This document shows, in pieces, positions 35,804-43,289 of a stretch of DNA of 64,000 nucleotides; position 1 is the first letter of the stretch, and each line of letters begins with the position of its first letter. The translations under genes were made by a program, and so were the position numbers. Source of the DNA: Schmidtea nova (Eukaryota); contig CM097884.1 in NCBI GenBank assembly GCA_044892505.1, forward strand, positions 136,772,001 to 136,836,000, in the 5' to 3' direction. The notes under the pieces were generated by a model. It did no database searches, was not told the DNA's origin, and saw nothing but the letters and a program-made list of their open reading frames with translations.

Positions 35804-38800
35804 AGTAGAGTAGGGGGAGCGCCCAAGAACAGGAACAGACCCCCCCCTCCCCCAAAAAAAATTTTTTTACCCCCCCCCCAAAAAAAATTTTGTTTAAATG
35901 AAGTGAATTTTTTAAATTTTTTATTTTGTTTAAATGAAGTGAATTTTTAAATTTAAATTTTGTTTAAATGAAGTGAATTTTTTAATTTTAATTTTTTGTT
36001 TAAATGAAGTGAATTTAATTTTAATTATTTNNNNNNNNNNNNNNNNNNNNNNNNNNNNNNNNNNNNNNNNNNNNNNNNNNNNNNNNNNNNNNNNNNNNNN
36101 NNNNNNNNNNNNNNNNNNNNNNNNNNNNNNNNNNNNNNNNNNNNNNNNNNNNNNNNNNNNNNNNNNNNNNNNNNNNNNNTTTAATTATTTTTATTAATTT
36201 ATTTTTAATAATTTATTTTTATTAATTTATTTTTATTAATTTTTAATAATTTATTTTAATAATTTATTTTAATTTTATATTAATTATTAATTTTAATTTA
36301 TTTATTTTTATTAATTTATATTTATTTATTTTAATTTATTAATTTGAATTAATTTTTATTAAGTTATTTTTATTAATTTAATTTTTATTTTTATATTAAT
36401 TTATTTTTATTAATTTATTTTTATTAATTTATTATTTTTAATTTAATTTATTTTTACTAAATAATTATTTTTAATAAATAATTTATTTTTACTAAATAAT
36501 TAATTCAGAATTTGATATATATATATATCAAATTCTGAATTAATTATTGTTGCCGGGGAAATATTAAAGAAAATTATTTTGAATTTGAATTTTAAACGTA
36601 TAATCAATTAATAAAACAAAATCAATTTAGAATAATTATGATAATAAAATTAATTATTTTTATTTTAATAAAAAATTAATCGATTTTAAATATTTGGTAA
36701 TAAATTTAACACAAAAAATAATTGTTATTAAAAATTTAAATTAACCAAAACAAAAAATAAATATAATTATTATTTTTGTAAACAACATCAATTTAGAATA
36801 ATTATGATAATAAAATTAATTATTTTTTATTTTAATAAAAAACTAATCGATTTTAAATATTTGGTAATAAATTCAACACAAAAAATAATTGTTATTAAAA
36901 ATTTAAATTAACCAAAACAAAAAATAAAATAAAATAAAATAAAATGAAAAGATAAGATTTGATAAATAAATTTTATTCACATATATTTGTTTCTATAATT
37001 TTCCAAACAGGTTTGACAACATCATTAGATTCTTTGAAGCCTTGAATCATTATCTTAATTTGATATATTGAATTTTCATCGGGATTTTTCAAATTACAAT
37101 CTTTAATGCAATTCATATACGTAAAAGCTTCATTAAATTGTATTTCTTTGTTGATTGCTAACAAAATTTCTGAAATATTTCGTCTATCAATATCTTCAAT
37201 TTTCCCCACTTGAAGATTATACATGCATTGTTTCAATGTAACAGGTTCCTATAAAATAATTATTAGAAATTTATTTAAAATAAATAAATATATACTTTAA
37301 ATGAATAAATGATTGGAAATTTTAAATATTCCATCGAGTATTGTAGAAATTGAACTGCAGGATTCCTAACCAAATTTGATGCCGAAATAGAATTTTCTTC
37401 AAGAATAATTTTCATTACTTCTTGTTTCAACATCTTTTTGTTCGAAGTTTCTAGAATAAAATATTAAAAATAATCATTTAAAAATAATTAAACTTACTTT
37501 TAAGTTGATACATTTTTAATGAAATCTGTAATTTTTAATCAATTTATATATATGTTTTCATAATTTAAATTGACCAATCAGATTTCGTTTAACATTTTTA
37601 TTAATTTTTATTTATTGATATTTTTGTGTGCAGATACACATTTTATTTTAATATGATAATTAATTATTTATGCAAAATATTTTAATAGACAGAATATATC
37701 AAAAAATAATGTAATGCATCGAATTATGATAAAAACTGTCACAATTCAATGAAAAGTTACTATACCTAAACAGGTAACTGCATCACATACATAATTTGCC
37801 CTTTGTGACTAAATTGATTAGTTTTTCTTATTATATCAACTTTTATAAATTTTATAAAAAACATTCGAAACAGATTTAATGTTACAAAATTATTATGTGG
37901 TAATAATAAAAATAATAAAAATATTAATAATTCACTGAAAATATTTAAAATGAAAAATCAATAAATATTTTGGTAAAATTCATTATTAACAATTATATTC
38001 AGTATCAGAACTTATCTAATATAACCTTAGTATCAGAACCTTTCTAGCAGAACCTTTGGTAGCAGAACCTCTTTTGTGATGGTTTTTACCTGTAAAAGAT
38101 TCATATTGTATATTCACTTATATACTATTATTGTTACATTTTCATTAAATTTATCACGTAGCAGAACCTTTCTAGCAGAACCTTTGGTAGCAGAACCTCT
38201 TTTGTGATGGTTTTTACCTGTAAAAGATTCATATTGTATATTCACTTATATACTATTATTGTTACATTTTCATTAAATTTATCACTTAGCAGAACCTTTC
38301 TAGCAGAACCTTTGGTAGCAGAACCTCTTTTGTGATGGTTTTTACCTGTAAAAGATTCAAATTATATTTTCATGATTGCAGTTTATGTGAAACCCGATAA
38401 AATACACATGTTTGAACCAATGGGATTTTATTATCCATCGCTATTGATGAAAAACATATCGTCAATGTTGATGTGAATTGAAAATAATAGAATCTGATAC
38501 TAGAATCCAATAACAAAAACATTTGGTAGTACTGTTTAGCATGGTTAATAAAAATGTTTAATAAATAAATATTTGTATTGAAATTTTGAATTAATTTTTA
38601 TTATTTTTAGAAATAATTGAATATTTATTTATTTAATCATTTAAATTATCGGAGTGAAGAATTAAATTGGACATGTAATAAGAAGTATCAAAAAATATTT
38701 CATTAGTTGCTTACTTATCCTTTTAATATGTTTACCTAGTTAACAGAGTTTTTATAATGATTTTTAAATTAATTATACATGTTAGTTATCAAGTGAAGAA

Positions 38801-41800: not shown

Positions 41801-43289
41801 TATTGAATTCTGACCACTTTTTAATTTTTTGGTTTTCGCCGACCAAAATATTATTTTCAAAAATACCAGACTAAAAATCATATTCAAAATTACCAGAGTC
41901 TATTTTTGCCTGAAGAAAAATCTGGGAATTGAAAATCCTATTCAAAATAATTTCAATGTATTTTACTAGTTTAAAAAATTTACACGTGTTTTTTATTTAC
42001 CATTAAAATTACAGTTCAAAATTATCAGAGTCTATTTTTGCTCTAGAAAAATATGGGAGTTGAAAATCCTATTCAAAATAATTTCAATGTATTTTACTAG
42101 TTTAAAAATTTACACGTGTTTTTATTTACCATAAAAAAATTTAGTTGAAAATTACCAGAGTCCCTTTTTTGCCCTAGAAAATATCTGGGAGTTGAAAATC
42201 CTATACAAAATACTTTAATGATAATTTACTTGTTTAAAAAATTTACACGTGTTTTTTATTTACCATTAAAATTTCAGTTCAAAATTACCAGAGTCCCTTT
42301 TTGCCCGAGAAAAATATGGGAGTTGAAAATCCTATTCAAAATAATTTCAATGTATTTTAATAGTTTAAAAAATTTACACGTGTTTTTATTTACCATAAAA
42401 AATTTAGTTCAAAATTACCAGAGTCTATTTTTGCCCTAGAAAAATATGGGAGTTGAAAATCCTATTCAAAATTTCATGTATAAAAATTCCCTGTACAAAA
42501 AATCCAGAGTCTATTTTTGCCCTAGAAAATCTCGGAGTAGAAAATCATGTACAAAATTACCAGAGTAAAAATCCTTTACAAAAATAAATAATTAAAATAA
42601 ATTAATTAAAATAAATTAATACAAATAAATTATTAAAAATAAATAAATACAAATAAATTAATACAAATAAATTATTAAAAATAAATTAAAAATAAATTAA
42701 TAAAAATTAAATAATAAAAATTAATAAAAATAAATTAAAAATAAATTAATACAAATAAATTAATANNNNNNNNNNNNNNNNNNNNNNNNNNNNNNNNNNN
42801 NNNNNNNNNNNNNNNNNNNNNNNNNNNNNNNNNNNNNNNNNNNNNNNNNNNNNNNNNNNNNNNNNNNNNNNNNNNNNNNNNNNNNNNNNNNNNNNNNNNN
42901 AAATAAATTAATACAAATAAATTATTAAAAATAAATTAANNNNNNNNNNNNNNNNNNNNNNNNNNNNNNNNNNNNNNNNNNNNNNNNNNNNNNNNNNNNN
43001 NNNNNNNNNNNNNNNNNNNNNNNNNNNNNNNNNNNNNNNNNNNNNNNNNNNNNNNNNNNNNNNNNNNNNNNNNNNNNNNNNNNNNNNNNNNNAAAATAAT
43101 AAATTAAATTGACTTCATTTAAACAAAAAATTAAAATTAAAAAATTCACTTCATTTAAACAAAATAAAAAATTCACTTAATTTAAACAAAATAAAAAATT
43201 TAAAAAATTCACTTCATTTAAACAAAAATAATTTTTTTTGGGGGGAGGGGGGGTCTGTTTCTGTTCTTGGGCGCTCCCCCTACTCTACT
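35804..43289 (-). mobile_element. Complete 7,486-bp non-autonomous Maverick-type unit with ~0.6-0.7-kb TIRs
   Basis: Both ends carry AGTAGAGTAGGGGGAGCGCCC followed by AAATGAAGTGAATTT and AT-rich repeats; left flank TTTATA does not match right flank AATACC. Confidence 0.75.
36973..37513 (-). CDS. Second intact copy of the three-exon orphan gene (exons 37513-37498, 37450-37296, 37248-36973)
   Basis: Same 47-nt introns and frame; differs by F7T and a G-to-E change (KIGD/KIED) plus synonymous changes. Confidence 0.75.

Follow-up and report, generated by a model that had tools for sequence, protein, structure and literature searches.

Mavericks, or Polintons, combine a short repeated end motif with terminal inverted repeats and a 6-bp target-site duplication (PMC8097293, PMC6431247); their replication, their passage through particles and their pick-up of cargo are open questions (PMC8097293; 10.1101/2022.07.12.499685). 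The element family described here shares those ends and that duplication, but keeps no core gene intact, carries private arrays absent from the helper elements sampled, has inverted repeats that make up as much as half of the element, and exists in thousands of copies, compared with a median of 8 for vertebrate Mavericks (PMC8097293, PMC6431247). Snap-back or copy-back defective viral genomes likewise have one end duplicated in inverted orientation and depend on a helper (PMC13506859), and the snapback genomes of AAV share with our family the occurrence of both symmetric and asymmetric forms (PMC10924063). Those genomes are free RNA or single-stranded DNA (PMC13506859, PMC10924063), whereas our elements, known here from chromosomal copies, make up heritable families flanked by integrase-type duplications. 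Among transposons, the closest published precedent is the extended repeats of Galileo. Galileo/Foldback elements are also non-autonomous, with long, internally repetitive repeats extended with internal sequence, and Galileo includes chimeric copies with unmatched duplications (PMC3573991). They are cut-and-paste elements of the P superfamily, with a longest repeat of ~1.3 kb and, in Galileo, a 7-bp duplication, whereas our family has 4–8-kb arms, zero-spacer axes and Maverick ends; the Galileo paper itself cites repeat expansion in Polintons (PMC3573991). Host DNA moved or carried by such elements, as at the locus below, is described for the Polinton rearrangements at C. elegans eri-6/7 (PMC11414722) and for nematode Maverick cargo (10.1101/2022.07.12.499685); in contrast to those cases, here the donor, the breakpoints and both duplications are visible and no host gene was recognised. 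The stem “palindrom” is absent from both texts (PMC11414722; 10.1101/2022.07.12.499685). A literature search with thin coverage of subscription journals, and with supplements and Repbase-type descriptions outside its coverage, returned no paper on palindromic Mavericks.

We analysed a 64,000-nucleotide stretch of the Schmidtea nova genome (contig CM097884.1; hereafter the window), in which a preliminary description had marked 35804–43289 as a complete 7.5-kb mini-Maverick without viral genes, carrying one cargo gene. The observation is real, but its boundaries were misdrawn. The hexamer AATACC flanks both a third terminus at 18625 (left copy, 18619–18624) and the terminus at 43289 (right copy, 43290–43295), pairing these two termini through a 6-bp target-site duplication (chance of such a match, 3e-4 at window composition). 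The 7.5-kb piece, in contrast, has TTTATA on its left (35798–35803) and AATACC on its right, and thus no target-site duplication of its own. Because AATACC lies on both outer sides while TTTATA adjoins 35804, the insertion is the 24.7-kb element 18625–43289. In an empty-site comparison for AATACC, the right flank resembled a repeat only beyond its first ~100 bases, and in none of the 7 copies of that repeat did the match continue into the left flank. The left arm (18625–25396, minus strand) is most of the 7.5-kb unit copied inverted, from the array end to the AT-rich array. It is followed by a repeat-rich 10.4-kb segment duplicated from a donor locus (25397–35803) that brings with it TTTATA, a single copy of the target-site duplication made by the donor insertion. 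The right arm, 35804–43289, is chimeric: its inner part, together with the 10.4-kb flank, is a copy of the donor, and its outer part mirrors the left arm. An inversion between two independent insertions was considered and rejected, as matching outer duplications are not expected from it.

The right arm opens with a donor-derived internal terminus and inverted repeat (35804–36494, plus strand; AGTAG twice, C/A runs, 36-bp repeats and an AT-rich array) and closes with the right inverted repeat and outer terminus (42580–43289, minus strand). The AGTAG-AGTAG termini reported earlier stand at 35804 (+) and 43289 (−), where none is expected by chance, and a repeated terminal motif as the putative slide-back start fits established knowledge (PMC8097293). 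The inverted ends, previously put at ~0.6–0.7 kb, measure ~0.7 kb, comprising ~230 bp at 83% identity and AT-rich arrays at ~80%, partly under N. Inward of the internal terminus lies a hairpin with a 25-bp stem (36495–36548), left over from the axis about which perfect palindromic elements are symmetrical. The four repeat arrays listed before were all recovered, with periods of 128 bp (38030–38372, 2.7 copies; present also in the palindromes of a sister family, C), 96 bp (40701–40999, 3.1 copies), 152–153 bp (41122–41829, 4.6 copies) and 131 bp (41883–42472, 4.5 copies), all on the plus strand. The ACTAACC tract is likewise present, on the minus strand at 39051–39950, as degenerate ACTAACC/AACCAA-rich sequence with six exact ACTAACC and 189 of its 900 bases N. 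A 167-bp repeat pair (36614–36932, plus strand, 1.9 copies) was missing from the earlier list. In 19 stretches from helpers or sister families we found no match to the 96-, 131- or 152-bp array or to the ACTAAC tract.

No ORF of at least 100 aa free of N occurs in 35804–43289, ~1 kb of which is N, and with the same reservation we found no ATPase ORF and, in agreement with the preliminary description, no polymerase, integrase or capsid ORF; the unit is thus not an autonomous Maverick. Viral sequence is nevertheless present. An adenain-type protease remnant with three stops (38375–38530, plus strand) shows 63% amino acid identity to an autonomous Peptidase_C5 ORF, and a weak polymerase N-terminus scrap, also with stops (37701–37805, plus strand), shows 49% identity over 35 aa (E 5e-4 against the window). 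The supposed cargo gene (36973–37513, minus strand) is predicted from sequence to encode 148 aa in three exons (37513–37498, 37450–37296 and 37248–36973) separated by two 47-base GT-AG introns. Its counterpart in autonomous Mavericks has 63–68% protein identity, carries both introns at the same places and, in the helper, sits between protease and polymerase, which identifies the predicted gene as a retained viral gene and not as host cargo. An intronless homologue, 28% identical, occurs in a second autonomous Maverick family. Exon 2 has a dN/dS of 0.20 and exon 3 a pN of 0.20 against a saturated pS of 0.76; exon 3 is free of stops in 69/69 matches (60 of them full length), compared with 2/39 protease remnants. 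The selection on the gene may date to an unsampled helper lineage. Since one subfamily has deleted most of it, the gene is not needed in cis. A search of cluster representatives with an E limit of 0.001 gave 69 relatives of the protein; of ten looked up, two bear a name, in both cases only “hypothetical protein”. Searches for its function gave no match in the Atlas, in word-based protein searches, in Pfam, in PHROGs or in the PDB (by sequence or by fold). As a candidate single-stranded-DNA-binding (SSB) protein with an OB fold, the product had no match that reached significance in Pfam, PHROGs or the PDB, its structural models having pLDDT 45 and 43 and a best Z of 2.8.

The exact 24-base terminus occurs at 5,822 places in the 1.25-Gb genome. 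Ten long terminus pairs were examined and comprised five autonomous Mavericks (15.0–15.5 kb), all with perfect 6-bp duplications, four palindromes of the unit family and one monomer (8.1 kb). The autonomous copy examined matches rve integrase, A32-type ATPase, Peptidase_C5, Adeno_PX and a TBP-like protein. The helper's 1,398-aa ORF is assigned as polymerase from its B-family motifs A, B and C and an Atlas match of 0.97 to DNA_pol_B_2 clusters, with no Pfam polymerase match; another ORF, with no profile match, we take to be capsid-like from its general resemblance. In its set of B-family polymerase, integrase, ATPase, protease and capsid-like ORFs the helper resembles described Mavericks. Exact-marker matches number 2,001 genome-wide for the unit family and 2,020 for the capsid-like gene of the autonomous elements. 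The earlier proposal of a satellite or non-autonomous family is therefore upheld: with ~2,000 arm copies the unit is not confined to this locus, and autonomous 15-kb Mavericks share its terminus. The family is Maverick-derived and non-autonomous, as its termini, 6-bp duplications and gene remnants (protease, polymerase and the spliced gene) attest, and the shared termini and duplications suggest that it would be mobilised in trans by the helper polymerase and integrase. Foldback/Galileo-type elements have a P- or Mutator-type transposase partner and a 7–11-bp duplication; the unit family has their long inverted repeats of tandem arrays, but with a 6-bp duplication and Maverick termini.

The usual form of the unit family is a palindrome of 9–16 kb, which the preliminary description had missed. 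Among the first 100 of the 2,001 marker matches (contig C1, 0.5–48.5 Mb, one assembly), 32 pairs within 10 kb were oriented −+, with the array end outward, and none was oriented +−; the first 100 capsid-gene matches held no pair within 10 kb. At least 64 of the 100 markers lie in palindromes. Both termini were found in 21 of the 32 palindromes, with perfect duplications in 18, one-mismatch duplications in two and none in one; in the other 11, one or both termini were missing from the stretch examined. The elements are 8.9–16.2 kb long, except for one of 38.6 kb that has three tandem cores per arm and a perfect target-site duplication. The two arms of an element differ by 0.0–0.5% (first four pairs compared), versus ~2–8% between elements, and private variants present in both arms occur at 79 sites in 21 of 31 elements, alongside 131 confined to one arm. 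When asymmetric junction words were tested, 14/16 were unique to one examined locus and the other two were not true junctions. Mirrored flanks take the place of duplications at L145 and L197/L198. A further 32 loci had a single marker; the 21 examined included two monomers with both termini and at least seven loci holding an inverted piece of the array end, and the remainder were truncated or decayed. Monomers with target-site duplications exist, at L041 and L142.

Palindromes also characterise two sister families, so that three families on three different termini share this form. The hairpin at 36495–36548 is the centre of perfect 14-kb palindromes in family C, whose terminus differs from that of the unit family. 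Ten loci on three contigs, chosen for their equal gene spacing, yielded ten family C elements, and all ten have this zero-spacer axis at the centre. It also centres 5 of the 32 unit-family elements; the exact 72-base axis word occurs at 256 places. The family C elements measure 14.0–14.6 kb, have arms that are mostly at least 99% alike, and show perfect duplications in all eight cases with both termini; mirrored private variants occur at 65 sites in 8 of the 10, with 84 one-arm private variants. Family B carries a polymerase gene in each arm, and its centre is a small pair of family-A termini, lopsided in the same way in 6/6 centres read, with the mismatch between the two central termini persisting. 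Ten family B loci yielded five elements with both termini, all with perfect duplications and 13.8–14.3 kb long. The family B junction has 1,509 matches; the exact pattern of the lopsided centre, which contains a variable C run, has 2 in the genome. The shared lopsided centre, the perfect duplications and the 1,509 junction matches together indicate that at least this palindrome was copied whole, and shared centres at dispersed sites favour propagation as palindromes more generally, although repeated repair in place might yield them as well.

The observations to be explained are thus shared termini, 6-bp duplications around whole palindromes, a single polarity, a shared axis and mirrored variants. 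We consider it probable, though well short of certain, that the family consists of integrated snap-back defective genomes, likely copied and integrated as palindromes with a polymerase and an integrase supplied by the autonomous Mavericks that share their termini. One end is duplicated in inverted orientation with little or no spacer, as in snap-back genomes (32 versus 0 in polarity; zero-spacer axes). Protein-primed strand-displacement synthesis would start at the array end and turn at the axis or in the AT-rich array, and the displaced strand, being self-complementary, would snap into a duplex hairpin. Such a hairpin would make a second priming unnecessary and would place two identical origins at the ends. 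After integration many copies would lose part of the centre, giving one-off asymmetric forms; in the extreme case this would leave a 7–8-kb “monomer” with the 25-bp relic hairpin. Amplification of phage phi29 terminal-protein DNA reportedly yields palindromic mini-replicons, and undersized helper-dependent adenovirus vectors are said to form concatemers. Both would share with the unit family protein-primed strand displacement and palindromic or size-restoring dimers, but these are laboratory-made products, whereas the unit family is natural and integrated. The excess of one-arm over mirrored private variants and the persisting central mismatch of family B show that arms are not re-made in every round, and the mirrored variants could come partly from assembly polishing. 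The wide range of sizes (8.9–16.2 kb, with one element of 38.6 kb) and the monomers with duplications speak against the snap-back model.

At the window locus, the segment 25397–35564 matches ~120.18 Mb of the same contig (G000:C3, ~120.175–120.185 Mb for the full segment), 16.6 Mb away and beside another unit copy. Segment and donor differ at 24 of 9,123 sites (19 substitutions in 7,692 plus 5 in 1,431); next to a TA run there are 18 differences in 713 sites. The start of the segment falls within a Penelope-like GIY-YIG remnant, and farther in lies an old fragment of a polymerase (26838–27499); no host genes were recognised in its 10.4 kb. Beyond the donor's far terminus comes TTTATA and then host-repeat sequence, as in 5 of 6 other copies of that repeat, and the donor copy is therefore the original insertion. 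The donor has since lost the equivalent of 35565–35809; the internal terminus and TTTATA are damaged there and intact in the window. Over 1,323 sites the inner right arm shows 5 differences from the donor and 40 from the left arm; the outer right arm shows 0 differences from the left arm in 2,116 sites and 6–25 per segment from the donor. The arm is donor-type up to ~38546 and left-arm-type from 38613, which bounds the crossover zone (38546–38613). A second locus, L077, does not share this crossover point: it turns at another position, and 38546 marks the border of a deletion that is common.

We lean slightly towards repair in place from the donor. A palindromic copy would have inserted at AATACC and then broken near its centre, and its right end would have been repaired by copying ~13 kb from the family member 16.6 Mb away. 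Copying would have run through the donor terminus and 10.4 kb of its flank and stopped at what is now the left end of the copied tract. In the donor this end lies 14 bases beyond the tip of an inverted repeat of Penelope-like type; in the window it abuts the AT-rich array of the left arm. Alternatively, and to our minds quite possibly although on balance doubtfully, a 24.7-kb molecule was pre-built by read-through past the donor terminus and two template switches, and then inserted whole by the integrase, so that a Maverick would have transduced 10.4 kb of chromosome. In support of this, the duplication encloses the entire composite, the internal terminus and TTTATA survive in the window, and the 38.6-kb element likewise has a perfect duplication. 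The main point in its favour is that the window arms (0/2,116) are more alike than segment and donor (24/9,123): older arms should differ from each other at ~5 sites, which favours capture before the last copying, or else a donor allele absent from the assembly. Against capture before integration, the junction word at 25397 is unique and the segment exists in two near-identical copies only, with no third among the best 40 candidates; donor and recipient lie on one contig; the inner part of the left arm derives from a family member other than the donor; and 24.7 kb exceeds helper size.

For the family as a whole, the main competitor to integrated snap-back genomes is that monomers transpose and palindromes form later in the chromosome: a break in the AT-rich array or in the relic hairpin would be mended by fold-back, or with the far inverted repeat as template. 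The relic hairpin could seed such fold-back repair, rebuilding the same axis with the duplication intact, and its position near one end would account for the polarity. This origin also accommodates the unique junctions with short fillers, the intact duplications, the 38.6-kb element and the mirrored flanks without duplications at L145 and L197/L198, and it has a precedent in the extended repeats of Galileo (PMC3573991). Clean monomers, however, are rare: the 21 of 32 single-marker loci examined contained 2, whereas palindromes hold at least 64 of 100 markers. Within families B and C, elements at dispersed sites have a uniform length and a uniform centre. In addition, hosts usually erode perfect palindromes. 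We regard chromosomal formation as unlikely. Perfect palindromes are also a known long-read artefact of fold-back reads, but here the two flanks of each palindrome are different and a 6-bp duplication links them, the arms vary in array copy number and at individual sites, and the axis letters at 36521 (X2, X4, X5) recur, as do the internal deletions, in contigs from independent runs, so that sequencing or assembly artefact is a very improbable explanation. The original reading of 35804–43289 as a complete mini-Maverick with a host cargo gene is scarcely credible: the piece has two termini, and 7–8-kb monomers with duplications exist elsewhere, the donor having been one, but its own ends lack a duplication and its sequence is chimeric, which refutes the reading for this copy, and its gene is found in autonomous Mavericks.

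These findings bear on how Mavericks replicate and spread. If each of the 2,001 matches marks a 6–7-kb arm, the unit family makes up roughly 1% of the genome, and this locus shows that it can give rise to 13-kb duplications across 16.6 Mb. A repeat library with the 7.5-kb monomer as its entry would miss the family's real form. Palindromic satellites also make the questions of replication, particle passage and cargo pick-up testable by observation: free hairpin DNA with a definite size and axis would be expected, as would an upper limit on length imposed by the helper. Families B and C measure 13.8–14.6 kb, versus 15.0–17.1 kb for the helpers, and we tentatively suggest that Mavericks might give rise to heritable defective genomes of the snap-back kind, under selection to attain the length of the helper genome. 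If this is true, such elements would preserve a fossil record that Maverick transposition passes through a displaced single strand and a capsid of limited size. The window element would then show that machinery in the act of capturing 10.4 kb of chromosome.

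Two sister families of 14-kb palindromes were recovered alongside the unit family, the mostly palindromic non-autonomous Mavericks. The perfect palindromes of family C (fetched stretches L171–L190) are a mix: outside a central 3.7-kb portion of the arm, the termini and polymerase tail come from one family, while the retained Maverick gene, the 128-bp array and the axis, or palindrome centre, come from the unit family. Family B (L063/L064 and L199–L210; e.g., G000:C1:4778433-4792752 in the 1.25-Gb genome) carries a polymerase gene in both arms and has termini of its own type, with a pair of family-A termini at its centre; the family B junction gave 1,509 matches.

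A longer, 38.6-kb palindrome (L125–L129, G000:C1:43053158-43091725) contains in each arm three 5.8-kb cores arranged head-to-tail, and is bounded by a perfect TTGGCG duplication. In the L145 and L197/L198 elements, the right flank mirrors the left one in place of a direct duplication; the mirrored sequence extends over at least 1,192 bases at 99.3% in L145 and is of the unit family in L197/L198.

The autonomous Maverick of stretch L035 encodes a TBP-like protein (L035:1559-2083; PF00352, E = 7e-17) and contains an endonuclease VII-like stretch inside its polymerase.

Elsewhere in the window lie decayed Maverick pieces (capsid-like, protease) and a decayed homologue of the retained-gene family (15163-16186 and 782-1120), as well as open frames of 333 aa (8739-9740, minus strand) and 872 aa (55815-58433, minus strand), which resemble Tc1/IS630-type and hAT-type transposases, respectively. 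A short stretch at 17236-17400, adjoining a long N run, is by eye possibly a decayed histone H2B end.

The gene region itself (window 36490-38030) is present in sequencing runs X1–X7, which span two organism codes and a soil metagenome study.
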